A DNA stretch of 64,000 nucleotides. Source: an uncultured Lentisphaerota bacterium. GTDB lineage: Bacteria; Verrucomicrobiota; Kiritimatiellia; CAIQIC01. Shown here one piece after another: positions 10,150 to 27,112 of this stretch. Each line of letters starts with the position of its first letter. The stretch's first letter is position 1. Location of the stretch: contig CAITZM010000190.1 in NCBI GenBank assembly GCA_903896925.1, positions 14,920 to 78,919 on the forward strand, in the 5' to 3' direction. Below the pieces are notes generated by a model, which searched no databases, was not told the origin of the DNA, and saw nothing but the letters and a program-made list of their open reading frames with translations. A program made the position numbers and the translations under genes.

Positions 10150-11343
10150 CTAACCGCGGACTTCGAGGCAGGTGTTGCCGGCGTCTTCCACATCGCAAAC
10201 CAGCGCGGCATCGCTCGTCACGCCGGCCGCGCGCAACGCGAGCTCGACGGAATCCGCCCGGGTCGCGCCGAGGGTGCGCGCCTCGGCAGGCGTGAGGCCG
10301 CGGCTGACCAGAAACAGGCGGACGTTGCGACACGCGGAGTCGGTCAGATGCCGGAGGCGGACGGCCTTGTGGTCGCCGAGGCGATAACCGCGCGCTTGCA
10401 CAAGCGCGAGCGTGGCCCGGTGGTCGGGCGCCTGCCCGAGCAACTGGAAAAAGGCGTCCTGCCCGACGCCCTGTGGGCACGCGGCTTCAAGAATGAGCAC
10501 ACCGCCGGCACGCACGGCCGCCTCGTTGTTCTTGATGCCCTTGTCGGCCTGATAAAAACTGCAGGCGAGCGGCCCGGCGACGCGCGCGATGACCGCATCC
10601 GCCGGCCTCTCGATGGCGTGCAGATAGGTCTGCCGGACTTGGGGAATGAGCGCATCCAAGGCCGCTTCCGGCGTGCCGCCCGCGGCGGCATGGATCTCGT
10701 CACCGACCTGGAAGAGGTTGACGGTGGCCAGGCGACGGCCGGCGGCCAGGGTGCGCAACAGCGCGAGCACGCCCTGATGGATCGGGGAGGTCTCCGGATG
10801 GCCGGGACGGCACGCCGGCTCCATGGCGCCCGCGTGGTTGCGCTCGATGTCGGCATAGGCCGCGCAGCCGATGGTCAGCGTTTTGTGGGCGCCGGTGTAG
10901 CCGGCAAAATAGTGCGGTTCCACGCTGCCGATGGCCAGCACGGTGTGCGCCGCCGCCAACCAGGGATGCGCGCGCCAGCCGCCGAGGTCGACCAGGTCCG
11001 CCGCGCGCGCATCGTGCCAGCCGATGGCCGTGAACCCGAGCCGCCGCAACGGCGCCTCGAAGGCCGCCTGCGCCGGCGCCGAAAAGCGGTGGCTGCCCGT
11101 GGCGATCAGCAGGCGCATGGCGGGGAAGTCCAGAAAAGCGCGGGCACACTCCAGCACGCGTACCGAATCCGTGCCGCGTTGGGGGTCGTTGATGACCACC
11201 AGGTCCGGAGATGAGCCAGCCAACGAGGCGCGGGCGACCTCCACCGCTTCCGCCAGCGCCGCGGGGTGGAGGCTGGTGAGCAACGGCCGGAACTCCCTGC
11301 GCACCGGCATCCGATCTGGTCCTGCTTGGTTCATAGTCAGCAC
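10150..11343 (-). CDS. LarA-like nickel-pincer-dependent racemase/epimerase family protein (DUF2088)
   Basis: Colinear with L. plantarum LarA motifs as I recall them: INDPQRGTDS (cf SDHTRP), IATGSHR (cf ATGFHR), EPHYFAGYTGAHK (cf ESHFFAGFSGGRK), ERNHAG (cf MANH). Confidence 0.75.
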   Translation of the reverse strand: MLTMNQAGPDRMPVRREFRPLLTSLHPAALAEAVEVARASLAGSSPDLVVINDPQRGTDSVRVLECARAFLDFPAMRLLIATGSHRFSAPAQAAFEAPLRRLGFTAIGWHDARAADLVDLGGWRAHPWLAAAHTVLAIGSVEPHYFAGYTGAHKTLTIGCAAYADIERNHAGAMEPACRPGHPETSPIHQGVLALLRTLAAGRRLATVNLFQVGDEIHAAAGGTPEAALDALIPQVRQTYLHAIERPADAVIARVAGPLACSFYQADKGIKNNEAAVRAGGVLILEAACPQGVGQDAFFQLLGQAPDHRATLALVQARGYRLGDHKAVRLRHLTDSACRNVRLFLVSRGLTPAEARTLGATRADSVELALRAAGVTSDAALVCDVEDAGNTCLEVRG

Positions 11344-11405
11344 TCGACATCGGCCAAAATGCAGATACTATGAATGACGTTCTCTGCATTGCAAACCGAA
11401 ATTCA

Positions 11406-12359
11406 ATGAATACTGAATTCAACAAGATTCTGGTGACGGGCGCGCAAGGTTTTCTGGCTTCGCACATCATGCCGCTGCTGGGGCAGGCGTTCCCCTCCGC
11501 CCAGGTGGTCGGCGTGGGCCGGAAGGACTACGACCTGCTGGATGCCTGGGCGCCGGAACAGATGTTCAAGGACCTGCAGCCGGACTGCGTCGTGCATCTC
11601 GCCGCGAAATCCGGCGGCATCCTCGACAACCGCCATCGTCCTGCGGACTATTTCTACCAGAACCTCGCCATGAACACGGCGGTGTTGCATGAAGCCTACC
11701 GCGCGGGCGTGAAGAAATTCCTGACACTGATGGGCGGCTGCTCCTACCCCGCCAAGGCCGTCTCGCCCATCGGCGAAGACCAGATGTGGAACGGCTTCCC
11801 GCAAATCGACAGCGCCGGCTATTCCACGGCCAAGAAAATGCTGCTGGTGCAATCGTGGGCCTACCGGCAGCAGCACGGCTTCAATTCGGTCGTGCTGGTG
11901 CCCGGCAACGTGTATGGCGAGGGTGACAACTTCAACCTGACGCAGGCGCACGTCATCCCCGCGCTGCTGCGGAAGTACCTCGAAGCCAAGGAGCGCGGCC
12001 AGCCGGAGATCGTGGCCTTCGGCACCGGGCGGCCGACGCGCGATTTCGTCTATGCCGGCGACGTGGCGGCGACCATCCCGTGGTTCCTGAAAAACTACGA
12101 CAGCAGCGAGCCCATCAACATCTCCAGCGGCACGCGCATCACGATCAAGGAACTGGCGGAGACCATCAAGGCGGTGACGGGGTACGAGGGCCAGATTGTC
12201 TGGGATACGAAGCAGCCCGACGGCCAGATGGATAAAATCTACGATGTGTCGCGGCTGCATGCGCTGGGGCTGAACTGCCCGACGTCGCTCCGCGCGGGTC
12301 TGCAGAAGACGCTGACCTGGTTCCTCCGGGCGCGGACCGAAGGCCGGGTGCGGCTGTGA
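11406..12359 (+). CDS. GDP-L-fucose synthase-like NDP-sugar 3,5-epimerase/4-reductase (Fcl/ColC family SDR)
   Basis: ILVTGAQGFLASH, YDLLD, PDCVVHLAAKSGGI, GVKKFLTLMGGCSYP, YSTAKKML, VPGNVYGEGDNF. Start at MNTEFNK. Confidence 0.75.
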   Translation: MNTEFNKILVTGAQGFLASHIMPLLGQAFPSAQVVGVGRKDYDLLDAWAPEQMFKDLQPDCVVHLAAKSGGILDNRHRPADYFYQNLAMNTAVLHEAYRAGVKKFLTLMGGCSYPAKAVSPIGEDQMWNGFPQIDSAGYSTAKKMLLVQSWAYRQQHGFNSVVLVPGNVYGEGDNFNLTQAHVIPALLRKYLEAKERGQPEIVAFGTGRPTRDFVYAGDVAATIPWFLKNYDSSEPINISSGTRITIKELAETIKAVTGYEGQIVWDTKQPDGQMDKIYDVSRLHALGLNCPTSLRAGLQKTLTWFLRARTEGRVRL

Positions 12360-13015
12360 GGTTGCGCCAGGATCTCTGCCTCGACCGTTTCCAGCTCATC
12401 GGCGATTTGGTCCGGGGCAAGCGGGTCTTGGACATCGGCTGCGTCGAGCACAATGCGATCAACGCCGAGCGGAACTACTGGCTGCACGAATTCGTCCGCC
12501 GGAACGCGGCCGAAACGCTCGGGCTGGATGCCAGCGCCGACCAGATCAAGATCCTGCAGGGGAAGGGTTACAACGTCATCTGCGCCGATGCCACCAATTT
12601 TCACCTCCAGCGGACCTTCGACATGATCGTGGCCGGCGAGACGCTGGAACACCTGGCGAATGCCGGCGGCTTCATGCAGTGTGCGCGCGAACATCTGGCC
12701 AAGGACGGGCGCCTGATCCTGACCACGCCCAACGCCAACTGCTGGAGCTATTCGCTGGAGAACCTGCTGTTGGGGCATGAACTCGACAACGAGGATCACA
12801 TCGCCCTCTATACTCCGCGCACGATCACCAGCCTGCTCCAGCGCTATGGGTTTCAGGTGGAGCGTTTTGTTTTCATCGCGCAAAACACCGCCTACACCCA
12901 TGACAACCTGCTGATCAGGGGCCTGGTGCATCTGAAGCAGGCGGGCCAGGTGCTGCTCGGTCTGGTGCGCCCGAGCCTGTGCCAGCATTTTATGACGATC
13001 GCGAAACCGGTATGA
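12356..13015 (+). CDS. class I SAM-dependent methyltransferase
   Basis: VLDIGCVEH motif I and IVAGETLEHL post-I/II motifs. The GTG start overlaps the upstream stop (GTGA). Confidence 0.75.
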   Translation: MRLRQDLCLDRFQLIGDLVRGKRVLDIGCVEHNAINAERNYWLHEFVRRNAAETLGLDASADQIKILQGKGYNVICADATNFHLQRTFDMIVAGETLEHLANAGGFMQCAREHLAKDGRLILTTPNANCWSYSLENLLLGHELDNEDHIALYTPRTITSLLQRYGFQVERFVFIAQNTAYTHDNLLIRGLVHLKQAGQVLLGLVRPSLCQHFMTIAKPV

Positions 13016-13851
13016 GCCAGGGTACAGAGAAAAGTTGTCTGGTGCTGGGCGGCAAAGGGTTTGTCGGGTCGGCCATCGTCGCCGAGGCCCGGCGGCGCGG
13101 CTATCGGACGACCGTGGTGGACCAGGACGAATATGCGGCCACCGTCGGCACCGCCTGCGACCTGCTGATCAACGCGAACGGCAACTCCAAGAAGTTCCTC
13201 GCCACCCAGGATCCCAAGCTGGATTTCGACCTGTCCATCCGTTCCGTGGCGCGTTCGCTGCAGGACTTCAAGGCCGGGCGTTATGTGTTTCTCTCCAGCA
13301 TGGACGTGTACTACCCGCACGTCCGCCTGCCCGAGGAAAACGCCGAGACCGTGCCGCTCGATGCGGCCCGGCAGTCGCCCTACGGTTTTCACAAGGCGCT
13401 GGCGGAGCAGCTGGTGCGGTTCTACGCCCGCGACTGGCTGATCTTCCGCATGGCCGGTTTCATCGGCCAGGGCTTGTGGAAAAACTCCATCCATGACCTG
13501 CTGACCGGACAGCCGTTGCGGGTGCATCCCGATTCCAGCTACCAGTACCTGAACACCACCGCGCTGGCGTCCGCCGTGTTGGATATGGCCGCGAAGGCCG
13601 AGGCCCACAACGAGCTTTTCAACATCGCCGGCGAAGGGCTCGTCAGCCTGCGCGAGGTGGCCGGCTGGATCCCCGGCTGCCAGCTGCCGCCGGCCTGGGA
13701 CGCCCTGCCGCTGGAGCGCTACGAACTGAACACGGCCAAGCTGAGCCGCTGGACGGCGCTGCCGCCGACCCGCGACGCGGTGCGCGCGTTCGTGCAGGAC
13801 TGGCTGGCCACGCACGGCGCCGGTGCCGCAAGTCCCCGAGGTGCCTCATGA
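13012..13851 (+). CDS. NAD-dependent epimerase/dehydratase family SDR
   Basis: CLVLGGKGFVGSAIV Rossmann motif and YGFHKALAE (YxxxK). ATGA overlap with the upstream gene. Confidence 0.75.
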   Translation: MSQGTEKSCLVLGGKGFVGSAIVAEARRRGYRTTVVDQDEYAATVGTACDLLINANGNSKKFLATQDPKLDFDLSIRSVARSLQDFKAGRYVFLSSMDVYYPHVRLPEENAETVPLDAARQSPYGFHKALAEQLVRFYARDWLIFRMAGFIGQGLWKNSIHDLLTGQPLRVHPDSSYQYLNTTALASAVLDMAAKAEAHNELFNIAGEGLVSLREVAGWIPGCQLPPAWDALPLERYELNTAKLSRWTALPPTRDAVRAFVQDWLATHGAGAASPRGAS

Positions 13852-14825
13852 TCATCGCCCGCACTCCCTTCCGGGTCAGCTTCTTCGGCGGCGGCACGGA
13901 TTTCCAGGACCACTACACCCAGCACGGCGGCGCCGTCCTGCTGACGACGATCAACCAGTACTGTTATCTGTCCATCCACCGGCTCAGCCCGTTCTTCAAA
14001 CACCGCTTTCGCGCCAGCTACGCCCAGACGGAATCCGTGCTCAAGCCGGAAGAATTCCAGCACCCGCTGGTCCGCGAGTGCCTGCTGCACCTGGGCGTGC
14101 AGGAGGGCGTGGAAATTTCGCACGTGGCCGATCTGCCGGGCCGGACCGGGCTGGGCACCTCGTCCTCGTTCACCGTGGGGCTGCTGAACGCCCTCCACGT
14201 CTGGCGCGGCGAGCGTGTCACTGCGGAAGACCTGGCGCGGGAGGCGATCCATGTGGAGCGCGTGCGCGTCGGCGATACCGGCGGACATCAGGACCAATAC
14301 GCCGCGGCCTATGGCGGCTTCCTGCGCTTGGATTTTTCCGCCGGGCCACGGACCACGGTGCGCCAGCTCGCGTTGCCGGCCGCGCGGCTGCTGGAGTTGG
14401 AACAATGCCTGATGCTCTTTTACACGGGGATCGAGCAGTCGGCGGAAAACATCCTGACCCACCAGCGGCAGCGCACGGCGGATAACCTGCCCTACCTGCG
14501 GCAGATGCGGGACATGGTGGACGAGGCCGAGCGCATCCTCACCGACGGACAGGATATGGCCCACTTCGGACGCCTGCTGCACCACACGTGGGAACTGAAG
14601 AAGAAGCTGGCCCAAGGCATCAGCAATACGATCGTGGACCAGGCGTATGAAGCCGCCCGGAAGCACGGCGCCTTGGGCGGCAAGCTGCTCGGCGCCGGCG
14701 GACGCGGCTTCCTGTTGCTCTTCGCCCCGACGGATCGGCACGCCGCCATCCGCCAAGCCCTGCCGACCTTGCAGAGCGTGCCCTTCCGCTTCAGCAGCTG
14801 CGGCAGCGAGATCATTTTTCGTTAG
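13848..14825 (+). CDS. GHMP sugar kinase, HddA/fucokinase-like
   Basis: RTPFRVSFFGGGTDFQDHY...GGAVLLTTINQY, PGRTGLGTSSSFTVGLL (GHMP motif II), GGKLLGAGGRGFLLLF. ATGA overlap with the upstream gene. Confidence 0.8.
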   Translation: MIIARTPFRVSFFGGGTDFQDHYTQHGGAVLLTTINQYCYLSIHRLSPFFKHRFRASYAQTESVLKPEEFQHPLVRECLLHLGVQEGVEISHVADLPGRTGLGTSSSFTVGLLNALHVWRGERVTAEDLAREAIHVERVRVGDTGGHQDQYAAAYGGFLRLDFSAGPRTTVRQLALPAARLLELEQCLMLFYTGIEQSAENILTHQRQRTADNLPYLRQMRDMVDEAERILTDGQDMAHFGRLLHHTWELKKKLAQGISNTIVDQAYEAARKHGALGGKLLGAGGRGFLLLFAPTDRHAAIRQALPTLQSVPFRFSSCGSEIIFR

Positions 14826-14834: not shown

Positions 14835-16031
14835 ATGAGCGTTCGCAAGCCCAAAATCGCGCTCTGGTTCCGCTACGGCCCCGCCGAGCATTCCGAACTG
14901 TTCCACGCCATCCCGCAAATCGTCGAAGCTTTGTCCCGGCACGCCGAGGTCCACTATTACGGGTTGCGCTCCCGCAAACCGTTGCCGCCGGCGATCGCCC
15001 AGCATGCGGTGATCCATCAGCTGCCCTTTCACGTGCAGCGCTCGGATGCCCGCGACAAGCTCTGGAAGACGCTGCTCTGGATGGCCTGCCTGCCGTGGGT
15101 GGCCCTGCGCTGCCGGCTGACCGGCGTGCGGGCCGTATACATTGACGAGACGGTGCCCCTCACGGCGCCCATCGCCCGCCTGTTCTTCGGGTCGCGCGTG
15201 GCCTTCTCGGTCGTGGATTTCTTCCCGGAAATTTACTGGGGCGAAAAACCGGCGTTGCGCCCGCTGGTGCGCCTGATCCGCGCCCTGGATTTTGCGGCCT
15301 GGCGCCGGCTGCCCGTGCTGTTCACCCGCGCGCACGCCACGAAGGCCTATCTCAAGTCCAACGGCGTGGTGCCAGAACGGGTCTACCCGGTCTACGACCC
15401 CTGCGACTTTGAGGTCTATCACCCCGAAGACCGCGCGGCCGCCCGCCGGCGTTTTGGATACGGATCCGACGAGATCGTGCTGGTGCACCACGGCATCCTG
15501 CACCCCAACAAGGGCAATGACCGGATCCTGCGCGGTCTGGCCACGTTGAAGGCCGACTATCCCCAGCTGCGTTATCTGCTCGTGGGTGACGGCGCGGAAA
15601 TGGGCCGCCTCAAAGCGCTGGCCGCCGAACTGGGGCTGACCGACTGCGTCCAATTCACGGGCTGGCTGCCAAGCATGAAAGACGTCAACACGGCCTTGAA
15701 TGCGGGCGACATCGGGCTGGTCATGCGGGTGGGCATGAAGCATGACGATTTCCACGCCACCGGGGCCTTGGTGCACAGCATGGCCTGCGGCCTGCCCATT
15801 CTTTCCGCCCGTCTGGGCGGCACCTCGGAAATTGTGCGCGAGGGCCGCGAGGGGTTGCTCTTCGATCCGCAGGAAATGTCCGACTTCGCCGACAAACTGA
15901 AACAGTTGATCGCAGACCCGGGCTTGCGCGCAGCCTGCGGGGAACGCGCCTTGCAGCGGGCGCACGAACTCTTCGCCATGGAGCGGGTCACCCGCGACAC
16001 GGTCGAGCCCCTGCTGACCCTGCTGCGCTGA
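14835..16031 (+). CDS. glycosyltransferase family 4 (GT-B)
   Basis: C-terminal GT1/GT4 signature: LLVGDGAEMGRLKALAAELGL...VQFTGWLP, ACGLPILSARLGGTSEIVREGREGLLFDP. Confidence 0.85.
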   Translation: MSVRKPKIALWFRYGPAEHSELFHAIPQIVEALSRHAEVHYYGLRSRKPLPPAIAQHAVIHQLPFHVQRSDARDKLWKTLLWMACLPWVALRCRLTGVRAVYIDETVPLTAPIARLFFGSRVAFSVVDFFPEIYWGEKPALRPLVRLIRALDFAAWRRLPVLFTRAHATKAYLKSNGVVPERVYPVYDPCDFEVYHPEDRAAARRRFGYGSDEIVLVHHGILHPNKGNDRILRGLATLKADYPQLRYLLVGDGAEMGRLKALAAELGLTDCVQFTGWLPSMKDVNTALNAGDIGLVMRVGMKHDDFHATGALVHSMACGLPILSARLGGTSEIVREGREGLLFDPQEMSDFADKLKQLIADPGLRAACGERALQRAHELFAMERVTRDTVEPLLTLLR

Positions 16032-16046: not shown

Positions 16047-17549
16047 TCAGAACATCAGCTTCTTGTCACCAAAGAACCGGTCCTTGTGCATCAGGATCCA
16101 TTTGATGGCGCGGTATTCCAGCGGCAGCACGAAACACCCTGTGGAGATGCGAAAGCGGCTGAGCTGATACATGGCGCGCTCGGCGAGCAGGGCCGGCCAC
16201 AGCAAATATTTGGGCGCCACGGCCTTGACCACGTTGCGTGCGTGGCCCGCCAGGAACATGAAGTAGATGGACGCCGCGTCCGTGAACTGCACGTATTTCA
16301 AGGGAATCCACGGGGCGGTGTGCGCGTGGAACTCGTATTGCGTCCAGCCTTCCAGGCTCGTCGGCGACCGGTAGCCCAGCTTTTCAGCCTCGGGCAGGAA
16401 ATGGGTGCCGGGCAGGGGCGTGTAGGCAAACAGATGGAACTGCGAAACCAGCCCGGTCTTGCGCAACTTGTTGATGAAGCCCAGCGTCGACTTGAAGTCC
16501 TCCTCGATGGGCGCCCCCGGGACGCCGATGATGAAGGAACACTGCACCCGGATGCCGTGCTTGTGCAGGCGCGGCAGCACCTCCAAGGTGTCGTTGACAC
16601 TGGCGCCTTTGCTCATGAGCGCCAACGTATCGTCGGAACCGGATTCCACACCCAGGAAAATATCCTGCAGCCCCGACTCGCGCATCAAGGCAAACGTCTC
16701 GTCCTTGTATTTCCGGAGCTGATCCGGCCGGCCCGAGGTGCCACCCCACGTCAGCTTCAGCGGTTTCAACCGCTCGCAAAACTCGATCACGCGCTTTTCG
16801 TTGACGTAGAAATTGGAGTCGGAAATGGTCACGCCGTCGAAGTGATATTTTTCCTTGAGCGTGACGATGTCGTTGATGATGCGGTCCACCGTCAGGCTGC
16901 GCCAGCGCCGGTGGTACAGCGCCTCTTCGCCGCAAAATTTGCAGTTGCCGGTGCAACCTTCCGAGGTGAGATAGTAGAGGGTTTTTTCCGCAAAACTGGT
17001 CTTTACCAGGTACTCTTCGAAATTGGGCAGCAGGTGATAGGGGATGGGCGGAAATACATTCAGGTCCTCCCGCGCCCGGGGGGTGGTGAAGACCATCTGT
17101 CCATCGCGCTTGAAGCCCAGCCCGGCGATGCCCGCCAGCTCGCGCTCCTCCGCGACCGCTGCGACCAGTTCGGAAAAGGTCCGCGGCCCTTGCCCGATGA
17201 CCACGACATCGACCAGGGGATGGGTCAGCGTCTGCTCCGGCAGCAGCGTGGGATGGCAGCCGCCGCAGACCAGCAAGACCTTCGGGTTCGCCTCTTTGGC
17301 GAGCTTGGCGGCCTCCAGCATCGTGCTGATTTGAAAGCCCGTCATGCAGGTGATGCCACAGATATCGGCCTCGCGGGCGGCTTCCTGGATATGCTGCGCG
17401 AACTGCTTGTCGTGCCAATCCAGCACGGTGATCTGGTGCAGGCTGCTATCCACCATGGCCAACGTCGACAACACGGACAACGGCGGCCCGTCATAGGGCA
17501 TCTTGGGCGAGGCCATCGGATTGATCATCAAGATCCGTAGTTTTTTCAT
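16047..17549 (-). CDS. B12-binding-domain radical SAM protein (class B), paralog 1
   Basis: N-terminal flavodoxin-like region (ICGITCMTGFQ, LLVCGGCHPTLLPE), then CTGNCKFC (CX3CX2C) and FLGVESGSDDTL. Confidence 0.85.
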   Translation of the reverse strand: MKKLRILMINPMASPKMPYDGPPLSVLSTLAMVDSSLHQITVLDWHDKQFAQHIQEAAREADICGITCMTGFQISTMLEAAKLAKEANPKVLLVCGGCHPTLLPEQTLTHPLVDVVVIGQGPRTFSELVAAVAEERELAGIAGLGFKRDGQMVFTTPRAREDLNVFPPIPYHLLPNFEEYLVKTSFAEKTLYYLTSEGCTGNCKFCGEEALYHRRWRSLTVDRIINDIVTLKEKYHFDGVTISDSNFYVNEKRVIEFCERLKPLKLTWGGTSGRPDQLRKYKDETFALMRESGLQDIFLGVESGSDDTLALMSKGASVNDTLEVLPRLHKHGIRVQCSFIIGVPGAPIEEDFKSTLGFINKLRKTGLVSQFHLFAYTPLPGTHFLPEAEKLGYRSPTSLEGWTQYEFHAHTAPWIPLKYVQFTDAASIYFMFLAGHARNVVKAVAPKYLLWPALLAERAMYQLSRFRISTGCFVLPLEYRAIKWILMHKDRFFGDKKLMF

Positions 17550-20253: not shown

Positions 20254-21464
20254 CCACGGTTCCCGACCGTGCCCTGCTTGGCCGCGCGCACGACCGCGCA
20301 GATCTTCTCCACATCGGCGCCCAGAAGCGATTGGTTGTTGGGCAGGAAGAAACCGCAGTGATACAGCCGGTCGGCCATGGGCGCGGAGAACGTGCCGTAC
20401 CGGTCGCTCCAGAACGGATGCCGGCCGAGGTTGCCCGCCGTGAAGATCCGGGTGTCGATCTTGTGTTCATCCAGCGCGGTCACGATCCGGCGGCGCTCCT
20501 CGGACGACTGCGCCAGGGCGCAGAAGGAAATGCTGCTGATGATGTCGCCGGGCAGCCCGGGCGCGAAATCGACCACGCCTTGCAACTGCTGTTGATAGAT
20601 CTTGTGGTTGGCGATCCGCCGCTCGATGGTGGCGTCCAGTTTCCGCAGCTGGATCAGGCCCAGCTTGGCGTTGATGTCGGTCGGCCGCAGGTTGTAACCG
20701 GGCACGACGAAGGTAAACGGTGCGCGGAAGGGATCGACCTTGTACAGCTCCATATAGCGCGCAGCCTCCTGAGGCGGGAGGTCTTTGAGCCAGCCGTGGC
20801 TGCGGCCCATCAGCAGGTGGAAGTACAGCTGCTCGTCATCGGTGCAGACGACGCCGCCCTCCACCGTGGACATGTGGTGGCCGTAGTAGAACGAAAAAGA
20901 GGACAGGTCGCCGAACGTGCCGACGAGCCGGCCTTGATGGCGCGCGCCGTGGCTGGCGCAGCAATCCTCCATGATCTTGAAGCCGTATTTCTTCTGCAGC
21001 GCCAGCAGGGCCGTCATGTCGCACGGCACGCCGAGCACCTGCACGAGGATGATGGCGTCGGGCCGCTCGCGCTTCAGGATTTCTTCCAGACAGGTGAGAT
21101 CCATGCCGAAGGTGCGGGCATCCGATTCGCACATGATGGGCTGCCAGCCGAGTTGCAGGGCCGGCATCAGCGTCGTGGCCCAGCCGGTCGTCGGCACCAC
21201 GATTTTTTTGGCGGCCACCTTGCGCGAAGTTTCCAACGCCGCATACATCAACAGGTTGGCCGACGAGCCGGAATTGCACATCACGGCGTATTTCACACCC
21301 AACCAGCGGGCCCAGGCGGCCTCGAATTCACGCGTGACATCCGCCATGGTCAGGCGCGGATACGCTTTCATCCAATCCATCAGCTCCGTCAGATCCGCAT
21401 CGCTGATCGTATCCACGGCCAGGTCATACCGTTGACTATGAAATACTGTCGAACTCATGCACAC
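20250..21464 (-). CDS. DegT/DnrJ/EryC1 fold enzyme of the ColD/E1 type (NDP-4-keto-6-deoxyhexose 3-dehydratase-like)
   Basis: Fold-type I sugar aminotransferase architecture (MCNSGSSANLL, DCCASHG). The Schiff-base Lys position is His: FSFYYGHHMSTVEGG, compared with SFHxxK....GEGG in true aminotransferases. Confidence 0.75.
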   Translation of the reverse strand: MCMSSTVFHSQRYDLAVDTISDADLTELMDWMKAYPRLTMADVTREFEAAWARWLGVKYAVMCNSGSSANLLMYAALETSRKVAAKKIVVPTTGWATTLMPALQLGWQPIMCESDARTFGMDLTCLEEILKRERPDAIILVQVLGVPCDMTALLALQKKYGFKIMEDCCASHGARHQGRLVGTFGDLSSFSFYYGHHMSTVEGGVVCTDDEQLYFHLLMGRSHGWLKDLPPQEAARYMELYKVDPFRAPFTFVVPGYNLRPTDINAKLGLIQLRKLDATIERRIANHKIYQQQLQGVVDFAPGLPGDIISSISFCALAQSSEERRRIVTALDEHKIDTRIFTAGNLGRHPFWSDRYGTFSAPMADRLYHCGFFLPNNQSLLGADVEKICAVVRAAKQGTVGNRG

Positions 21465-21571: not shown

Positions 21572-22549
21572 TCAAGGCGCCAGCAGGGCGACGGCTTGCC
21601 CGGCGATCTGTTCGGGCCCCAGCCCCACCGCGGCCAGCAGGCTGTCGCGGCCGCCAATATCGAAACGATAGTGATGCGGCAGGCCCAACCCCTTGAAGCG
21701 CGTCTGGCCTGCGACAGGCCAGAGTATTTCCCGCAGGGCGGCGTCCAAGCCGCCCTTGCCGACAAAACCTTCCTCCAAGGAAAGAACGGCCGGGCAGCCG
21801 GCCAAGGCGGCGCCCAACGCCTGGCCATCCAAAGGCGACAGGGCCATGATATCGATCACCGCCGCCTGCACGCCCTGCTGTTGCGCCAGAAGATCAGCCG
21901 CCTCCAAGGCTTTGTGCACCATGTAGCCGGTGGCGACCAGCGTCACACCCTGGCCGCGCCGCAGAAAACGGAACCCTTGGCGCAGTTCAGCCACCGTAGG
22001 CGCCTCGGCGACATCCGGCAATTCCTTGCCATCCATCCTCAGGTAGCGGATGCCGGTTTCCGGCAACAGCTGCTGAGCGAGGACGCGCGCCGTGGCGCTG
22101 TCCGCCGGCGAGTAGACGCCGAGGTTGGGCAGCACCCGCATGATGGACAAATCTTCCAGCGCCTGATGTGTGGGGCCGGACACATCATAGCTGTAGCCGG
22201 CGCCGACGCCGGCCAGCGTGACGTTCATCGGGCGCACCTGCGAGAGCAGGCACAGGTTCACGCGCACCTGCTCGTAACAACGCATGGTCAGAAACGGCGC
22301 GATGGCATAGGCCACCACCGCATGCCCCTCCAGGGCCAATCCGGCGGCGACGTTGATCAGGTTTTGCTCGGCAATGCCCACATTGATGAACCGCTCTGGG
22401 AAACGCTGCGCCAGGATATCCAGCTTGGGCGAACCGAAATCTGCGGACAGGAAGATGAGCGACGGGTCGGCGGCCATCCGCTCCGTGACCGCCACGATGA
22501 AGGCGTCCCGCATTCTGGTTTTAATGAGCGCCGGCATAGTCACCTGCAA
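21572..22549 (-). CDS. transketolase, C-terminal (pyrimidine-binding) subunit
   Basis: RDAFIVAVTERMAADPSLIFLSADFG, FINVGIAEQNLINVAAGLALEGH. Overlaps the end of the N-terminal subunit gene. Confidence 0.88.
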   Translation of the reverse strand: MQVTMPALIKTRMRDAFIVAVTERMAADPSLIFLSADFGSPKLDILAQRFPERFINVGIAEQNLINVAAGLALEGHAVVAYAIAPFLTMRCYEQVRVNLCLLSQVRPMNVTLAGVGAGYSYDVSGPTHQALEDLSIMRVLPNLGVYSPADSATARVLAQQLLPETGIRYLRMDGKELPDVAEAPTVAELRQGFRFLRRGQGVTLVATGYMVHKALEAADLLAQQQGVQAAVIDIMALSPLDGQALGAALAGCPAVLSLEEGFVGKGGLDAALREILWPVAGQTRFKGLGLPHHYRFDIGGRDSLLAAVGLGPEQIAGQAVALLAP

Positions 22550-23348
22550 GGAGTCGGTCGATTTCGCCAGCCGGCACGCTCAACACATGGCTGATCGGGC
22601 TGGCTTCCAGGGAAGGCACGCCATGCCCCTTGATCGTGTTCGCAATCAGGGCGACGGGTTGTCCCGCAGGCTCCCGGCCGATGGCAGACAGGCGCGGGTG
22701 CAGCGCCGCCAGGTCGTGGCCGTCGCACTCTTCGACGCGCCAGCCGAAGGCCTTCAATTTTTCCGCCAAGGGCGCGAGGGTCACGACGCAGGCGGTGTCG
22801 TTGAGCATGCAACGCGAATTGTTGTCCACGATCAAGGTCAGGTTGCCCAGCCGATGATGGCCGGCGAACATGATGGCCTCCCACACCGCCCCCTCGTGCA
22901 GTTCGCCGTCGCCCACCAGCACCCACACGCGGTTCGACGAGTGGCGCCGTTGCAGGGCCAGCGCCATGCCGCACCCCACGCCGAGACCATGCCCGAGCGA
23001 GCCGTTGACGGTCTCGTAGCCGGGAATCACCGGATCCGGAATGCCGCCGAGAAAGGAGCCGGGCCGGCAGACCTGCTCCAGTTCCGACAGCGGAAAAAAG
23101 CCCAGATCCGCCAGGATGGGATAGAGGGCGATCGAGCCATGCCCTTTGCTGACGATCAGCCGGTCACGGCCCTCCCAGAGCGGTTCCTTGGGGGAAAAAC
23201 GCAGGATGTCCCCGTAGTACAGACACACCAGCGCCTCCACCGGCGAGAGCGAGGAGGCCACGCGCGTTTCCGGGGCGCGCTTATGGATCAGCAACGTCTG
23301 TTGCCAAACCCAGCGCGCCTTTGCCTGCAATTCTGCCAAAGTCATCAT
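22521..23348 (-). CDS. transketolase, N-terminal (ThDP-binding) subunit
   Basis: SLSPVEALVCLYYG, DRLIVSKGHGSIALY, GSLGHGLGVGCGMALA, LVGDGELHEGAVWEA, VDNN. Start at MMTLAEL (23348). Confidence 0.88.
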   Translation of the reverse strand: MMTLAELQAKARWVWQQTLLIHKRAPETRVASSLSPVEALVCLYYGDILRFSPKEPLWEGRDRLIVSKGHGSIALYPILADLGFFPLSELEQVCRPGSFLGGIPDPVIPGYETVNGSLGHGLGVGCGMALALQRRHSSNRVWVLVGDGELHEGAVWEAIMFAGHHRLGNLTLIVDNNSRCMLNDTACVVTLAPLAEKLKAFGWRVEECDGHDLAALHPRLSAIGREPAGQPVALIANTIKGHGVPSLEASPISHVLSVPAGEIDRLLAGDYAGAH

Positions 23349-23597
23349 CGGAACATCGTTTCTAAAGCCCGGCACCCTTCCCTCCGGCCGGTGGACCCGA
23401 ATCCGCCGCCCGCCCTCGCTTCCGGCCTGCACCCGGGTGCCGGACGCTTGCGCCACTACACAGGGCACAGCAGTCCGCATAACACACTCCATTTGACCGT
23501 GCAAGACCTTATAGAACTTGACAATGCCCGCCTGCGCAGCAATGTATACCCCCTACCGCCTCAGAAGCCAGCGCGGGGCTGGCCCTGGCGCAGAGCC

Positions 23598-24953
23598 ATG
23601 ATGGATGCCGAACCAAGAGATTCGTCGAATATGATCACCGCCAACTTTATCGTGCCGTCGCTCTTTTACTGGAACCAGCCCTTCAAACAGCAGCCGCTGA
23701 CACAACTTTACCTCGCCAGCATCGTCGACGAGCATTTCCAAGGCCGGCAGATCCAGACCAAGGTCACCGACCTGCGCGGTCTGAACCCCGCGGAACTGCA
23801 TCTCCACATCGCCGAGCCCAGCGAGCTGTTTCTCTACAGCATCGCTTCGCCAGATTTCCGGGAGGTGTTCGCCCTCGTCGAAATCCTGCGCAAGAAATTT
23901 CCGGGCGCCAAACACATCGCCGGCGGCGCGCATGTCAACATCTTCCCGGAAGAAACCGCGCGGGTCTTCGACTGCGTCGTCAGCGGGAGCGGCGAGAAAT
24001 CGCTCATCCAGCTGCTGGAGGATTTCCTGCGCGGCGACCTGAAGCGCAGCTACGAGCTGGACCCCGACTACGCCCACACCCGCTATCCCTTCCCCCGCCG
24101 GCACTACCTGCCGCGCGAGAAGATCGTGCGCGACAACCTGATCAAATGCGCCCCGGGCGTGCTGTCCACCTCCACCCTCTTCTCGCACGGCTGCCCGTTC
24201 ATCTGCGGCTTCTGCGCCAACTACAACCGGCGCAAAAGCGTCCGGCGCTCCAACGCGGAGATGGCGGCGGAGATCGAATACCTGCAGGCCAACTATGGCG
24301 TCACGGGCCTGGCGATGCTCGACGAGATCTGCATCCCGCTGATCGAGGCCGAGTCACGGCCCTACCTGGAGACCCTGAAAAAGTACAAGGTCCTGTGGCG
24401 CGGCCAGTCCCGCGTGGGCATCCAGCCCGACGTCCTGAAGCTGGCCCGCGAGGCCGGCTGTCTCGAGCTCAACCTGGGCGTCGAGAGCGTGTCGGAAAAG
24501 GTCATGGAGATCGTCAAGAAGCGCATCAAGGTCGAAGACGTCAAGGCGATGATCAAGAACTGCAAGGCGAACGACATCAAGGTGTACATCAACCTGGTGA
24601 ACGGCCTGCCGGGCGAGCCGAAGAACATCGTGCAGATGACCAAGGACTTCATCGAGGAAACGCAGCCCGACCTCGTCAACCTCTTCTCCCTGTGCCTCTA
24701 TCCCGGCTCGCCGATCGCCGAGCACCCGGAAAGATACGGCATCGACCCAACCACCGTACAGAAGGACTACCACCGGATGAACCACCTCGTCCGGCGGTTC
24801 AAGGACAGCCAGGCCCAGGACGACGCCGAGGAAATGGTGCTGTTCTCCTACCAGGCGGAAGGCCCCTTCGGCCCGGCCTTCTCGCGCGAGGAAATCCTGG
24901 CCAATTACGAGAACTTGCAGGAATTCGTCATCAGCCGCGGACTGAACAAGTAG
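23598..24953 (+). CDS. B12-binding-domain radical SAM protein (class B), paralog 2
   Basis: Only the C-terminal 451 codons of the 866-aa listed ORF look coding. They contain HIAGGAHVNIFPEE, CPFICGFC (CX3CX2C) and NLGVESVSEKVM. An alternative ATG lies at 23631. Confidence 0.85.
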   Translation: MMDAEPRDSSNMITANFIVPSLFYWNQPFKQQPLTQLYLASIVDEHFQGRQIQTKVTDLRGLNPAELHLHIAEPSELFLYSIASPDFREVFALVEILRKKFPGAKHIAGGAHVNIFPEETARVFDCVVSGSGEKSLIQLLEDFLRGDLKRSYELDPDYAHTRYPFPRRHYLPREKIVRDNLIKCAPGVLSTSTLFSHGCPFICGFCANYNRRKSVRRSNAEMAAEIEYLQANYGVTGLAMLDEICIPLIEAESRPYLETLKKYKVLWRGQSRVGIQPDVLKLAREAGCLELNLGVESVSEKVMEIVKKRIKVEDVKAMIKNCKANDIKVYINLVNGLPGEPKNIVQMTKDFIEETQPDLVNLFSLCLYPGSPIAEHPERYGIDPTTVQKDYHRMNHLVRRFKDSQAQDDAEEMVLFSYQAEGPFGPAFSREEILANYENLQEFVISRGLNK

Positions 24954-24978
24954 ACTGCACTGCCGGCTGGGCGGACGG

Positions 24979-25028: not shown

Positions 25029-25264
25029 TATGGGACGCGGGCGCGTCCGCCTGTGCGTTGACGAGGGTAAGTCTTTCTATTAAGGTAAACGCGCAGTTCA
25101 ATCCGCCTGGCTGGCGCACGGGGTGTTGCGTAGCGGAAGCGCCGGTGCCGGTGCGGATTAATGCTTAGGGCCCGGCCGGGATGTCGAGCCGATGGCCAGA
25201 ACAGACGGCAAGCCGTTGCTTTGGATGCGCCGAAACCAGGCAGTGAAATGTATTTAGCGATGGG

Positions 25265-27112
25265 ATGCGGAGCAGCATGAGAATTCTTCTGATCGTAGCC
25301 ACCCACCGGTACAAATATTCGTACCCGGCCTTTCTCTCGATCACCGACTTCCCCGCCGGCATCGCCTACGTGGCCTCCGCCCTCCAGCAGGCCGGACACG
25401 AGGTCATGGGGCTCAACCCCAACAACGACAGCTCCTATCCCAGCGCCCGCGCCATGCTGGAGGACAAAATCCAGAAGGCGGTGCACGATTTCCAGCCGAC
25501 GCTGATCGCGCTCGGCGGCATCTGCATCGACTACGCCTTCTTCAAGGACGCCATCGCCCTCTGCCGGCAGTACGCGTCCGCGGTGCCCATCGTCTGCGGC
25601 GGCGGCATCATCACCAACGACGCCGCCTTTGTGTTCGAGACCTTGCACCCCGATTTTTGCATCGTCAGCGAGGGCGAGGAGGCCATGGTCCGGCTGGCGC
25701 ATGCGCTGGAAAAGGGCGGGGGCTTTGACCACATACCGAACATCGGCTATTGGCGGGGTCAGGAAGCCGTCTTCACCAAGACCGACTTCAATTACGGCGC
25801 CATCGACCAGCTCGCGTTCCCCAACTACGAGATCTTCGACATCCGCGACATGATGGACGGGTACGCCATGGCGGCGCGCAGCCTCTACCGCTATCCGCGG
25901 ACGCACCCGCGGCCCATGACGATCGTGACGGCGCGCAGCTGCCCGTTCCGCTGCACCTTCTGCGTGCACCATCGCGGCCCGCAGTACCGGGCGCGCTCGG
26001 TGGCGAACATCATGGCGGAGCTCCGGGAATCCTACGAAAAATACCGCTTCAACGTCCTGATCATCCTCGACGAGCTGTTTGCCGTGAACAAGGCCCGGAT
26101 GCAGGAGTTCTGCACCGCCCTCAGCGAGGGCCGGCGGGAGTACGGCTGGGATTTCGACTGGTCCTTCCAGACCCATGCCGTCGCCGCGCTGGACGTGCCG
26201 ACGCTGAAGATGGCCAAGGCGGCCGGCTGCTACCTCTTCGGCTACGGGGTGGAAAGCGCCAGCCCGCGGGTCCTCGCCAGCATGAACAAGCGCAGCAAGC
26301 CCGAGCAGATCGCGGCCGGGATCGCGGCCGCCGCGGAGGCGGAGGTGGGTTTCGGCGGCAACTTCATTTTCGGCGACGTGGCCGAGACGACCGACACCAT
26401 CCGGGAATCCATGGATTTCTTCTGGAAGCACTGCCGGGACATCAACCTCAACATGATCTCCATCCAGCCCTACCCCGGCAGCAAGCTGTTCGAAGACTGC
26501 CGGGAGCGGGGCATCATCGGCGACAAGCTGAAATTCTACGAGACCATCAGCGAGCACATCTGGAACATGACCACCATCCCGGACCGGCTGTGGTTCCCCT
26601 GGGTGCACATGCTGTACCTGTTCTCCAACACCGCACCCTGGCTCAAGTCCACGGACGCCGTTGAGTTCGAGGTCGAGACGGACGGTGAGCCGGATCCGGT
26701 GGCGCGGTTCTACGGCAAACGGATGTGCCGGATCAGCGCGGTGTGCCCGCATTGCGGGAAAAAATCCACCTATCGCGAACTGCTGGCCGATGCGCCGCCG
26801 GCCCCGCAGCAGGCGCAGCCCCGCCGCAACCCGCTGGCGGGCCTCAAGAGCCTGGCCGGCAGCCGCTACCAGCGCATGGTCCTCCAGGCGGCCCTCGTCA
26901 ACGCCTTCCACTATCTGCTGACGTTCCGGCATCCGCTGTTCCGTACCCTGCAGAACCTCTACGGCGAGACCAAGAGCAACCAGAATTTCACGACCGGCTG
27001 CAAACACTGTCACCGGCACATCAAGATCTACATCCCCAAGCAGGAATTCAAAGACAAGCTGGCGTTCCAGGCGAAAAAGCTGATCGCGAAAACGCTGAAC
27101 TGGGCCCGCTGA
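25265..27112 (+). CDS. B12-binding-domain radical SAM protein (class B), paralog 3, with Cys-pair C-terminal extension
   Basis: PIVCGGGIITND, CPFRCTFC (CX3CX2C), GYGVESASPRVL. The C-terminal roughly 150 aa carry CPHCGKK ... CKHCHRH. Confidence 0.85.
   Translation: MRSSMRILLIVATHRYKYSYPAFLSITDFPAGIAYVASALQQAGHEVMGLNPNNDSSYPSARAMLEDKIQKAVHDFQPTLIALGGICIDYAFFKDAIALCRQYASAVPIVCGGGIITNDAAFVFETLHPDFCIVSEGEEAMVRLAHALEKGGGFDHIPNIGYWRGQEAVFTKTDFNYGAIDQLAFPNYEIFDIRDMMDGYAMAARSLYRYPRTHPRPMTIVTARSCPFRCTFCVHHRGPQYRARSVANIMAELRESYEKYRFNVLIILDELFAVNKARMQEFCTALSEGRREYGWDFDWSFQTHAVAALDVPTLKMAKAAGCYLFGYGVESASPRVLASMNKRSKPEQIAAGIAAAAEAEVGFGGNFIFGDVAETTDTIRESMDFFWKHCRDINLNMISIQPYPGSKLFEDCRERGIIGDKLKFYETISEHIWNMTTIPDRLWFPWVHMLYLFSNTAPWLKSTDAVEFEVETDGEPDPVARFYGKRMCRISAVCPHCGKKSTYRELLADAPPAPQQAQPRRNPLAGLKSLAGSRYQRMVLQAALVNAFHYLLTFRHPLFRTLQNLYGETKSNQNFTTGCKHCHRHIKIYIPKQEFKDKLAFQAKKLIAKTLNWAR

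Follow-up and report, generated by a model that had tools for sequence, protein, structure and literature searches.

Introduction

The GDP-3,6-dideoxy-heptose pathway of Campylobacter jejuni capsules comprises an HddA/HddC entry, a 4,6-dehydratase, a pyridoxal 5'-phosphate (PLP)-dependent C3-dehydratase, an epimerase and a C4-reductase, and it leads from GDP-heptose through the PLP enzyme to GDP-3,6-dideoxyheptose (PMC10440746). In the yersiniose, erwiniose and caryophyllose systems, an E1-type 3-dehydratase is combined with a YerE-like thiamine diphosphate (ThDP) carboligase and a YerF reductase; YerE, ErwE and related enzymes add an acyl anion to a 3,6-dideoxy-4-keto sugar, giving the acyl-branched sugars of lipopolysaccharide (PMC9306805, PMC12247030). 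A 2025 review listed 13 candidate split transketolases (TKs) of the miharamycin/amipurimycin type, all from Streptomyces, all in antibiotic clusters and none characterised, and TK-type branching of keto sugars has been proposed but never demonstrated (PMC12247030). The colitose pathway of enterobacterial O-antigens consists of Gmd, ColD and ColC. The CsbB/GtcA/YfhO systems use GT-C enzymes for the extracytoplasmic glycosylation of teichoic acids, and GenK/GenD1, MoeK5 and Fom3 are cobalamin-dependent radical S-adenosylmethionine (SAM) C-methyltransferases. In the present study, we analysed a 14-gene locus at positions 10150-27112 of a 64-kb stretch of contig CAITZM010000190.1 (the window, meaning the whole stretch of DNA that was analysed), whose most likely role is the synthesis and attachment of a cell-surface sugar that is unusual and heavily modified.

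The locus resembled each of these systems in part. It shares with the C. jejuni pathway an HddA-type kinase, a ColD-homologous His-type C3-dehydratase and an Fcl-like reductase, and the guanylyltransferases of sister loci (related loci fetched from other genomes, designated by L numbers) point to GDP chemistry. It differs from that pathway in that the window holds no HddC, 4,6-dehydratase, GmhA or GmhB, in that the kinase scored 136 bits against an HddA cut-off of 600, and in its additional ThDP enzyme, three radical SAM enzymes, LarA-like protein and GT-C protein. As in the colitose pathway, the dehydratase has ColD as its best solved relative, with the His aligned, and a ColC/Fcl-like short-chain dehydrogenase/reductase (SDR) lies nearby; in contrast to that pathway, Gmd, ManC and a Wzx/Wzy context are missing, the SDR is without its catalytic Ser, and the direct partner of the dehydratase is a ThDP enzyme in place of the reductase. 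The yersiniose-type systems likewise combine, within surface-glycan loci, a 3-dehydratase with a neighbouring ThDP enzyme and SDR. However, the ThDP enzyme of the locus belongs to the TK superfamily (pyruvate dehydrogenase (PDH)-E1 in some sister loci) and not to the decarboxylase (YerE) superfamily, the nucleotide is probably GDP and not CDP, and the dehydratase is ColD-type, without the E1 iron-sulfur motif.

The miharamycin/amipurimycin enzymes are also two-gene TK-fold proteins in sugar-tailoring clusters (PMC12247030), whereas the TK of the locus occurs in envelope-type loci of the Gram-negative Planctomycetes-Verrucomicrobia-Chlamydiae (PVC) superphylum, and of other bacteria, with a distinct active-site signature. 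The likeness to CsbB/GtcA/YfhO lies in the GT-C fold, in long homologues with weak PF09586 matches and in the GT2 partner of a second kind of sister locus (type B). In contrast to those systems, the window protein has only half the length (444 aa) and lacks a Pfam match, no GT2 or flippase is present in the window, the host is a diderm without teichoic acids, and the sister-locus GT2 is not of the GtrB/CsbB type by models. The three radical SAM proteins (rSAM1-3) carry CxxxCxxC behind an N-terminal B12-binding-type domain, as do the C-methyltransferase TokK and the non-methylating diol dehydratase AprD4, but their identity to known radical SAM sugar tailoring enzymes is low and rSAM1 forms a PVC-restricted family of its own. 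In summary, the kind of locus (glycan biosynthesis) is known, and its enzyme set is uncharacterised yet recurrent. The first-pass annotation had described the locus as atypical and without a close counterpart, and this description stood: all 14 proteins scored far below the NCBIfam equivalog cut-offs, and no description of this gene combination was found in the literature.

Results

A ColD-type 3-dehydratase beside a split ThDP enzyme

The ColD-like protein matched ColD (2GMS) with 182 bits and E1 (3BCX) with 148 bits. Its segment FYYGHHMSTVEGG aligned with FYSHHIATMEGG of ColD, in which the first His takes the position that is Asn in chain 3B8X; the active-site stretches read 'GHHMSTVEGG' and 'SHHIATMEGG', respectively. 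These alignments bore out the His-for-Lys 3-dehydratase proposed earlier: a His replaces the Schiff-base Lys, is aligned with the catalytic His of ColD, and was kept in all orthologues of the protein. Because no CxC-type Cys cluster of the E1 type ([2Fe-2S]) was visible in the sequence and the ColD score exceeded the E1 score, the protein was assigned to the ColD type and not to the E1 subtype. Orthologues in sister loci were 64-90% identical. In every locus having the ColD-like gene, it adjoined a split ThDP enzyme of either the TK or the PDH-E1 type, and this constant adjacency strengthened the earlier suggestion of a deoxygenated, possibly branched sugar.

Both subunits of the ThDP enzyme best matched the split transketolase of Carboxydothermus hydrogenoformans (TKC, 153 bits to the C chain of 6YAJ; TKN, 161 bits to 6YAK). 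The ThDP motifs were kept, namely 'GDGELHEG...VDNN' in TKN and the cofactor-activating Glu in 'GIAEQN' of TKC. We then mapped active-site residues through alignments with 6YAK/6YAJ and human transketolase, in the Escherichia coli TktA numbering of the literature. The canonical substrate-binding residues (His26, His100, His461, Asp469 and Arg520) were substituted by Arg and Ile in TKN and by Gly, Ser and Gly in TKC, in this order. In transketolase, these five bind the C1-hydroxyl of the donor, the C2-hydroxyl of the acceptor and the phosphate of the substrate. In the same mapping, the equivalents of His66, His261, Arg358, Ser385 and His473 were retained. The assignment as a split ThDP transketolase therefore held for the two-gene fold and the cofactor motifs, and failed for the five canonical substrate-binding residues.

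The same residue signature was found in L005, L051, L049 and L054, as well as in an unrelated 44%-GC metagenome locus, L094 (ETRVASSLS / GGIPD / GVGAGxSYDVSGPxH; window 21572-23348, L094 14073-15871). Members with this signature, including those from unrelated genomes, always lay beside a His-type DegT gene and a B12 radical SAM gene. The recurrence of the signature therefore indicated a distinct TK-fold subfamily, which, judged by its residues, is unlikely to act on ketose phosphates. Since the ligands of the donor C1-hydroxyl are lost, a pyruvate-like donor would fit rather than a ketose.

In two sister loci, L003 and L048, a ColD orthologue of 64-68% identity stood beside a PDH-E1-type split ThDP enzyme. 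TK- and E1-type enzymes thus interchange beside near-identical ColD orthologues, which suggests that the ThDP enzyme acts on the dehydratase product; this interchange is the strongest single argument for such a substrate. As in the YerE-type systems, the enzyme adjoins a 3-dehydratase, but its fold is that of a TK (window) or an E1 (L003, L048) and is not YerE-like. The TK-like enzyme may work like YerE without belonging to its family.

Conservation across PVC loci

We compared the 14 window proteins with all fetched loci by tblastn. The gene set was collinear in at least six other metagenome lineages of the PVC superphylum. Scattered orthologues, which the first-pass annotation would have taken as the mark of an ordinary locus, were not what we observed: orthologues were co-localised in related genomes. 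Two types of loci were distinguished. Type A (window, L005, L051, L055, L049, L054 and L047) showed the order LarA-like, Fcl-like/SDR2/GHMP kinase/GT4a, B12 radical SAM, short membrane protein (~430-444 aa), GT4b, ColD-like and split TK, usually with a further 'T-type' B12 radical SAM gene adjoining the TK genes. Type B (L001, L003, L008 and L048) carried the same kinase/SDR/GT4a module and rSAM1, together with a YfhO-like membrane protein of 820-850 aa, a guanylyltransferase-like NTP_transferase and a GT2 in translational coupling with rSAM1. Pfam matches of this GT2 included Glyco_transf_21 and Glyco_tranf_2_3; a GtrB/CsbB-like identity was considered and was not backed by NCBIfam, in which MftF was the best match (96 bits).

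Between the relative L051/L052 and the window, collinearity (84-86% nucleotide identity) extended from cinA up to and including the TK N-subunit and resumed across rSAM3 and SpoU. The locus occupies the same recA-to-SpoU slot in this relative and therefore predates the split of these lineages. Recent horizontal acquisition, which the base composition had first suggested, was not sustained by this shared cinA-thpR-recA ... SpoU slot or by the small size of the compositional shift; in addition, no tRNA was found in the window, no convincing direct or inverted repeats flanked the locus, and no mobile-element scar was found. Movement over long time scales is possible, and the more distant versions L049 and L054 lie in a different chromosomal context. 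Differences between the window and L051/L055 were limited to the right arm. L051 has a Laminin_G_3 gene in place of rSAM2 and an extra 553-aa gene ahead of SpoU, and in L055 the LamG gene is accompanied by an rSAM2 orthologue (94%). This pattern points to differential loss. The RecA of the window fell in a 90%-identity cluster with a protein from a Kiritimatiellota metagenome-assembled genome (MAG), and the host belongs to the Kiritimatiellota (PVC superphylum) rather than to the Verrucomicrobia proper.

Two accessory genes of the sister loci are absent from the window. One encodes a protein of ~555 aa (63-77% identical among L051, L049 and L054) that has a hydrophobic segment at its N-terminus and matches no Pfam family, and the other encodes a secreted Laminin_G_3-domain protein (coordinates of the accessory genes: L051 430-2091 and 4350-5405; L049 12783-14456; L054 12779-14455; L001 18978-20093; L012 ~14900-15850; L055 4186-5241). 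Each is a candidate acceptor or partner for the GT-C enzyme.

A related theme in other phyla

A metagenome scan with an alignment of the kinase yielded 588+ relatives, and gene content was scored in 36 loci of at least 8 kb. NTP_transferase was present in 24 of these, a split ThDP enzyme in 19, a ColD/E1-type DegT in 18 and an SDR of the SDR315 type in 14; a T-type B12 radical SAM enzyme occurred in 13, 11 of which also had the split ThDP enzyme. The genes were usually on the same strand. The dehydratase-type His was found in 30 of the 42 DegT homologues from all fetched loci, the window included. LarA and rSAM1 occurred in none of the 36 loci, and the membrane protein had no convincing homologue in them, the one weak match (24%) being to the long YfhO-type form. 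These three are PVC-specific additions to a core shared across phyla, in which the GHMP kinase is accompanied by a B12 radical SAM enzyme, a split ThDP enzyme, a 3-dehydratase of the His type and a guanylyltransferase.

The theme was also found in one cultured bacterium, Geomonas limicola (Geobacterales; L056; GCA_014193675.1, BLXZ01000004.1, locus coordinates 1277-21329). Its single-strand operon contains a GT61, an SDR, a guanylyltransferase-like NTP_transferase, the GHMP kinase (47% identical), a sugar-acid dehydratase (GD_AH), a split E1-type ThDP enzyme, three radical SAM proteins (one of them an rSAM2-family member, 41% identical), further reductases and a GT2. The DegT protein of this operon is His-type and Cys-rich (E1-like). 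The operon is a possible experimental model in which genetics would be feasible.

The kinase/Fcl-like module and the LarA-like protein

The Fcl-like open reading frame (ORF) opens at 11370, and its 317-aa form agrees with the orthologues, which are 63-90% identical across the sister loci. It scored 266 bits against the NCBIfam Fcl cut-off of 500, and ~199 bits to the human and E. coli GDP-fucose synthases. GDP-fucose synthase has a catalytic triad of Ser114, Tyr143 and Lys147 and uses Cys116 and His186 as the acid-base couple of 3,5-epimerisation (human numbering). In an alignment with this numbering, the equivalents of Tyr, Lys and Cys116 were kept, and the His186 equivalent was Gly in the window and varied in the other orthologues. 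The family named in the first-pass annotation, an Fcl/ColC-like epimerase-reductase, was thus correct, and two defining residues of the canonical enzyme (the Ser114 and His186 equivalents) were lost. Orthologues of the class I methyltransferase occurred, among the fetched loci, solely in the closest relatives L005 and L051. For SDR2, the ORF opens at 12979 and the 279-aa form agrees with orthologues (45-82% identity in sister loci); a YxxxK motif is present at residue 124.

Besides HddA (D-glycero-D-manno-heptose 7-phosphate kinase), the NCBIfam fucokinase model matched the GHMP kinase (95 bits), and its best PDB chains were the heptose kinases 3K85, 4USK and 4N3O (~140 bits). The protein is therefore a member of the GHMP family, below the equivalog level of HddA. 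Its identity was 62-89% within PVC loci, and the usual partners of HddA (an SIS isomerase, an HAD phosphatase and a guanylyltransferase) were not found in the locus. GT4a, 31-87% identical in sister loci, always adjoined the kinase/SDR module.

The ORF of the LarA-like protein reaches back to a GTG at 11343, and the probable start is the ATG at 11334, giving 394 aa as in the orthologues. Its best NCBIfam match was malate racemase with 136 bits, against a cut-off of 462 (and of at least 460 for every characterised subfamily). Residues H85, H144, K154 and H170 aligned with His108, His174, Lys184 and His200 of LarA (2YJG numbering), so that both catalytic His residues, the Lys that binds the nickel-pincer nucleotide (NPN) and the Ni-ligand His of the superfamily are present (PMC11770544). 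The local alignment begins past Arg75, which contacts the NPN phosphate, and a 'DPQR' motif lies at a plausible distance. None of the cofactor genes larB, larC and larE was found within the window, and the glycan-locus context differs from that of LarA, being unmentioned in the survey of the superfamily. The protein was present in all six type-A loci that cover its slot (window, L005, L051, L049, L054 and L047), with orthologues 70-80% identical; the 7-kb L055 contig stops short of it. NTP_transferase was absent from those six loci, and the reverse state (NTP_transferase without LarA-like) was seen in type B and L012. This mutual exclusion may reflect functional replacement, lineage coupling or chance.

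A compact membrane protein with a GT-C-like model

The 444-aa membrane protein had no Pfam or NCBIfam match. It corresponds to the N-terminal half of YfhO-like proteins of 820-850 aa, with 38-42% identity to the first halves of those in L001 and L003; a weak PF09586 (YfhO) match was seen in some of the long homologues only, including one of the L001/L003 pair, and not in the window protein. Homologues formed ~93 clusters from PVC MAGs, all annotated as 'hypothetical'. An AlphaFold2 model built from 45 sequences reached a predicted local distance difference test value (pLDDT) of 77.5 and a predicted template-modelling score (pTM) of 0.82. When this model was searched against the PDB with Foldseek, 23 of the top 24 matches were GT-C glycosyltransferases (Pmt1/2, STT3, PglB, AftA, EmbA/B, AftD and ALG3, with ALG12 lower down) and rank 17 was a glycosylphosphatidylinositol-transamidase subunit; all 24 are membrane enzymes of lipid-linked glycan pathways. 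Probabilities were 0.72-1.00 (mostly near 1), E-values 4e-3 to 0.4 and TM-scores 0.28-0.50.

In GT-C enzymes, the catalytic acid lies in the first extracytoplasmic loop. D38 of the window protein, in the motif 'TDDN', was invariant in the 45-sequence alignment and is located near the N-terminus, past the first predicted helix. From the model, the protein can be read as a compact GT-C transferase. The gene had a B12-type radical SAM partner in every locus, and this partner was mostly rSAM1. A partner polyprenyl-phosphate sugar synthase or GT2 was not found in the window by tblastn with the sister-locus GT2s. The adjacent GT4b gene lay directly downstream of the ColD-like gene in all type-A loci (34-92% identity).

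Radical SAM enzymes

Of the three B12-binding radical SAM enzymes annotated at first, rSAM1 and rSAM3 exceeded the Pfam gathering score for the B12-binding domain and rSAM2 did not (25.7 against 32.1 bits), its Cys motif being present. The solved relatives of all three were limited to TokK, CysS, OxsB and AprD4, with E-values of 1e-16 to 1e-5. The CxxxCxxC motif of rSAM1 (C198/C202/C205) was invariant. An exhaustive HMMER search of 1.84 billion representatives returned one 50%-identity cluster at 58% identity to rSAM1, and the next matches were at 37-38% (332 bits). Orthologues of at least 43% identity came only from Kiritimatiellia, Lentisphaerae and Verrucomicrobiota; all these genome matches were MAGs, and no cultured organism was among them. 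By these searches, rSAM1 is a discrete, rare, PVC-restricted subfamily. In L049 (11278-12744) and L054 (11317-12738), a B12 radical SAM protein only 27% identical to rSAM1 fills the rSAM1 slot beside the GT-C gene, an apparent non-orthologous replacement at a fixed position.

The rSAM2 family is broad (180+ clusters); its member is missing from L051, and in L055 it follows TKN and the LamG gene. An orthologue of rSAM3 (83%) was found in the same position in L051 and in no other fetched locus. The C-terminal extension of rSAM3 (26700-27112; ~170 aa) contains two CxxC pairs (CPHCGKK ... CKHCHRH) and looks like a putative zinc ribbon. The nearest solved relative of rSAM2 and rSAM3 was the diol dehydratase AprD4 (best chain for rSAM2, 6FD2). 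C-methylation of the sugar, raised as a possibility at first, accordingly stays as one option next to dehydration, and a methylation role for rSAM2 and rSAM3 was considered and not established. In all, at least six mutually distant B12 radical SAM subfamilies occurred across the fetched sister loci, and these enzymes may carry out methylation, dehydration or other chemistry.

Entry and export genes

The lack of entry and export genes noted at first was confirmed for the whole 64 kb. No nucleotidyltransferase or GT2 was detected by tblastn with the sister-locus versions, and neither a 4,6-dehydratase (Gmd) nor a mannose-1-phosphate guanylyltransferase (ManC) was present. A flippase, polymerase, chain-length regulator or initiating phosphoglycosyl transferase of the Wzx/Wzy/Wzz type was likewise not found in the window, whose polytopic proteins, besides that of the locus, are limited to an MFS transporter and a VIT-family protein. 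The membrane protein, if modelled correctly as a GT-C enzyme, partly answers the question of the missing assembly and export machinery. The sister-locus nucleotidyltransferases best matched ManC/HddC guanylyltransferases in NCBIfam.

Two SDRs were considered as the missing 4,6-dehydratase, and one of them was rejected. The only other extended SDR of the window, at 5711-6742, is the UDP-glucose 4-epimerase GalE (407 bits against a cut-off of 262); it lies 3.4 kb upstream of the locus, beyond cinA-thpR-recA, and is not obviously a member. SDR315 of the sister loci, a possible candidate, has the motif 'TTNSGYG', without the Asp/Glu acid-base pair of 4,6-dehydratases.

Gene order and gene calling

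Genes were called by the GC content of third codon positions (GC3), a method chosen since the window has ~65% GC. As annotated at first, 14 contiguous genes, and nothing else, fill 10150-27112 (Table 1); the left flank is cinA-thpR-recA (6771-9945, with recA at 8848-9945) and the right flank a SpoU-type methylase (27134-27985). The two divergent arms proposed earlier were replaced by four transcription units (- / +++++ / ------ / ++): the LarA-like gene; Fcl-like to GT4a; rSAM1, membrane protein, GT4b, ColD-like and the two TK genes; and rSAM2 with rSAM3. Overlaps of 4 nt at four junctions (Fcl-like/methyltransferase, methyltransferase/SDR2, SDR2/GHMP kinase and ColD-like/GT4b), as read from the coordinates, indicate tight coupling of these genes. 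Profile hidden Markov model annotation of the 14 proteins with Pfam and NCBIfam, the check that had been proposed for the locus, upheld the families, and Pfam agreed for every named gene. An 866-aa ORF at 22353-24953 (+) is an artefact and was not accepted as a gene: over its first 1.2 kb it lies on the strand opposite the TK genes and shows an incorrect GC pattern by codon position, and its last 440 codons (from 23631) are the real rSAM2 gene.

Table 1. Genes of the locus, with window positions, strand and the supporting matches
Gene	Position	Strand	Basis and remarks
LarA-like (NPN-dependent 2-hydroxyacid racemase/epimerase family)	10150-11334	-	Pfam Lar_N and LarA_C
Fcl/ColC-like SDR (GDP-L-fucose-synthase-like)	11406-12359	+	Pfam Epimerase/GDP_Man_Dehyd; NCBIfam Fcl
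Class I SAM methyltransferase	12356-13015	+	Pfam Methyltransf_23, 81.6 bits; start overlaps Fcl-like stop by 4 nt
SDR2, second extended SDR (RmlD-like)	13012-13851	+	Pfam Epimerase, 54.6 bits; RmlD_sub_bind, 26.4 bits; overlaps methyltransferase stop by 4 nt
GHMP sugar kinase, HddA type	13848-14825	+	Pfam GHMP_kinases_N and GHMP_kinases_C
GT4a glycosyltransferase	14835-16031	+	Pfam Glycos_transf_1, 87.8 bits
rSAM1, B12-binding radical SAM	16047-17549	-	Pfam B12-binding, 65 bits; Radical_SAM, 75 bits
Predicted compact GT-C-type membrane glycosyltransferase, 444 aa	17619-18953	-	AlphaFold2 model and Foldseek
GT4b glycosyltransferase	19018-20253	-	Pfam Glycos_transf_1, 35 bits; start overlaps ColD-like stop by 4 nt
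ColD-type PLP/pyridoxamine 5'-phosphate-dependent sugar 3-dehydratase	20250-21458	-	Pfam DegT, 238 bits; active-site His
TKC, transketolase-like ThDP enzyme, pyrimidine (Pyr)/C-terminal subunit	21572-22513	-	Pfam Transket_pyr and Transketolase_C
TKN, transketolase-like ThDP enzyme, pyrophosphate (PP, N-terminal) subunit	22521-23348	-	Pfam Transketolase_N, 105 bits
rSAM2, radical SAM	23631-24953	+	Radical_SAM, 65 bits; B12-binding, 25.7 bits (sub-threshold)
rSAM3, B12-binding radical SAM with Cys-rich C-terminal extension	25265-27112	+	B12-binding, 47.9 bits; Radical_SAM, 45 bits

Discussion

Taken together, the sequences suggest that the locus is probably a chromosomal, vertically maintained glycan cluster whose products are one or two unusual GDP-activated sugars attached to a cell-envelope acceptor. 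The chemical steps set out here are all inferred, from the observed families, conserved adjacency, active-site states and GT-C-like fold. GDP chemistry is proposed because the Fcl-like and ColD-like proteins best match GDP-sugar enzymes and the sister-locus nucleotidyltransferases match ManC/HddC. The HddA-type GHMP kinase would form a sugar 1-phosphate (heptose or 6-deoxyhexose), and a guanylyltransferase, encoded in the sister loci and acting in trans here, would convert it to the GDP-sugar. After 4-oxidation and 6-deoxygenation, the ColD-type enzyme would remove the 3-hydroxyl to give a GDP-3,6-dideoxy-4-keto sugar, a step with parallels in the colitose and C. jejuni 3,6-dideoxyheptose pathways (PMC10440746). 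The split TK-fold enzyme, remodelled from ketose-phosphate binding, might then add an acyl anion (C2 or longer) to the 4-keto carbon, as YerE does in yersiniose synthesis, to form a C-branched tertiary alcohol. The SDRs would act as reductases, and the class I methyltransferase and the radical SAM enzymes would tailor the sugar by C-methylation or AprD4-like deoxygenation. GT4a would transfer the product of the kinase/Fcl-like module and GT4b that of the ColD/ThDP module, and the compact GT-C enzyme would carry out a membrane-embedded, periplasm-facing transfer. The LarA-like enzyme might epimerise a 2-hydroxy-acid centre, in the donor acid or in a carboxylated sugar.

Several points weigh against this pathway. 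TK-type branching of a keto sugar has never been shown in vitro (PMC12247030). The Ser114 equivalent of the Fcl-like protein is Gly in all eight PVC orthologues, and the catalytic residues of both the TK and the Fcl-like protein were mapped with numbering from the literature carried through alignments. The GT-C assignment rests on a model with weak Foldseek E-values and modest TM-scores. The window lacks a nucleotidyltransferase, a 4,6-dehydratase, GmhA/GmhB, a flippase and a priming transferase, and therefore the proposed pathway needs genes from elsewhere; in the sister loci, the SDR315 that accompanies the pathway is without the acid/base pair typical of 4,6-dehydratases. Finally, L001, L009 and L046 have the kinase/Fcl-like module but no ColD/ThDP module, so that the two modules may serve separate sugars.

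The target could also be a membrane lipid, with rSAM1 and the glycosyltransferases modifying a glycolipid head group in the manner of HpnI/HpnJ/HpnK for hopanoids, in place of a polysaccharide or glycoprotein product. The best NCBIfam matches of rSAM1 include both HpnJ (119 bits) and a lipid-biosynthesis B12 radical SAM family, and the type-B rSAM1 is translationally coupled to a GT2 of the Glyco_transf_21 and Glyco_tranf_2_3 types, which often act on lipids or small molecules. However, the rSAM1 scores are all far below the family cut-offs, the GT2 has only a sub-cut-off best match (MftF, 96 bits; cut-off, 280), genes for hopanoid or other lipid pathways are absent from the surroundings, and GT-C enzymes usually take the sugar from a lipid-linked donor and pass it to an extracytoplasmic polymer or protein. 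We therefore regard a lipid target as unlikely.

We consider it improbable that the locus makes a secreted specialised metabolite, such as an aminoglycoside-like compound or a nucleoside antibiotic of the miharamycin kind, with no role in an envelope glycan. Split TK, DegT-family, B12 radical SAM and AprD4-like enzymes are typical of such clusters (PMC12247030), but no transporter, regulator, resistance gene or scaffold-forming enzyme lies beside the locus in the window. In addition, the GT-C membrane transferase and two GT4s are constant partners, the locus is syntenic between housekeeping genes in related genomes, and the sister loci hold further envelope enzymes (GT2, PMT_2 and YfhO-like).

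The four transcription units, the three loci with the kinase module alone, and the variation of rSAM2 and rSAM3 even between close relatives would all be expected if two or three independent operons (sugar-nucleotide, ColD/TK/GT and stray radical SAM genes) merely lay side by side. This arrangement has little probability in our view, however, as the order of the left three units is shared by seven independent type-A loci, among them L049 and L054, which have another chromosomal context, and as, in loci from other phyla, a single operon-like run on one strand contains the genes for the kinase, the dehydratase and the ThDP and radical SAM enzymes. An ordinary colitose- or fucose-type O-antigen or capsule cluster making GDP-colitose or GDP-fucose amid unrelated neighbours, to which the best matches of the dehydratase (ColD, among solved proteins) and of the SDR (GDP-fucose synthase) and the two GT4 genes would point, is highly improbable given the absence of Gmd, ManC, Wzx, Wzy, Wzz and a priming transferase from the window, the sub-cut-off Fcl-like protein without its catalytic Ser, and the ThDP, radical SAM, LarA-like and GT-C genes, whose collinearity across lineages at 53-70% protein identity shows that they are not chance neighbours.

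Within the reading of the locus as an envelope-glycan cluster, a joint interpretation is put forward tentatively, and as a whole it is somewhat doubtful. The locus family would represent an unrecognised, widespread route to C-branched deoxysugars, in which a TK-fold subfamily that has lost its ketose-phosphate residues serves as a carboligase on a GDP-3,6-dideoxy-4-keto sugar and B12 radical SAM enzymes elaborate the branch; in the PVC superphylum, a nickel-pincer (LarA-type) epimerase acting in glycan biosynthesis and a half-size GT-C enzyme always partnering a B12-type radical SAM protein (mostly rSAM1) would be added. A possible implication of the GT-C/radical SAM pairing is that a lipid-linked sugar undergoes radical chemistry at the membrane.

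The locus family supplies many new TK-type branching candidates from Gram-negative envelope-type clusters. As these share an active-site signature and a fixed partner, the ColD-type dehydratase, the question of keto-sugar branching can be put to a direct test. For several orphan B12 radical SAM subfamilies, the locus gives a lead to the substrates; it also places a LarA homologue in a glycan context, presents a compact GT-C form, and offers a first handle on the envelope glycans of the Kiritimatiellota, a phylum known mostly from metagenomes.

Composition and surroundings of the locus

The mean GC content of the locus genes was 64.1%, compared with 66.7% for the other 32 genes of the window (Mann-Whitney p=0.003), and the codon-usage distance between the two sets was significant by permutation (p=0.0005). 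The lower GC content reported in the first-pass annotation is thus real; the drop is small, and only rSAM1 (60.1%) falls below the range of the other genes. Scans for promoter and terminator consensus sequences gave no more sites than in shuffled sequence. Rfam returned no match in the whole window at the gathering threshold, nor at E<=0.1 in two low-GC intergenic stretches (~56-57%; 39030-40236 and 50043-50925), and therefore no cobalamin riboswitch is indicated. The first of these stretches holds a 169-aa ORF (39580-40089), and the second sits between the divergent glmS and queA genes. Around the locus, the window also encodes a set of polysaccharide-degrading proteins, namely a GH115, a PelZ-like pectate lyase and a 1163-aa alpha-L-rhamnosidase-like protein, with which an unannotated secreted 713-aa protein is grouped (20-1612, 54423-56030, 59515-63006 and 57064-59205, respectively). 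This set fits a glycan-degrading lifestyle of this member of the Kiritimatiellota.

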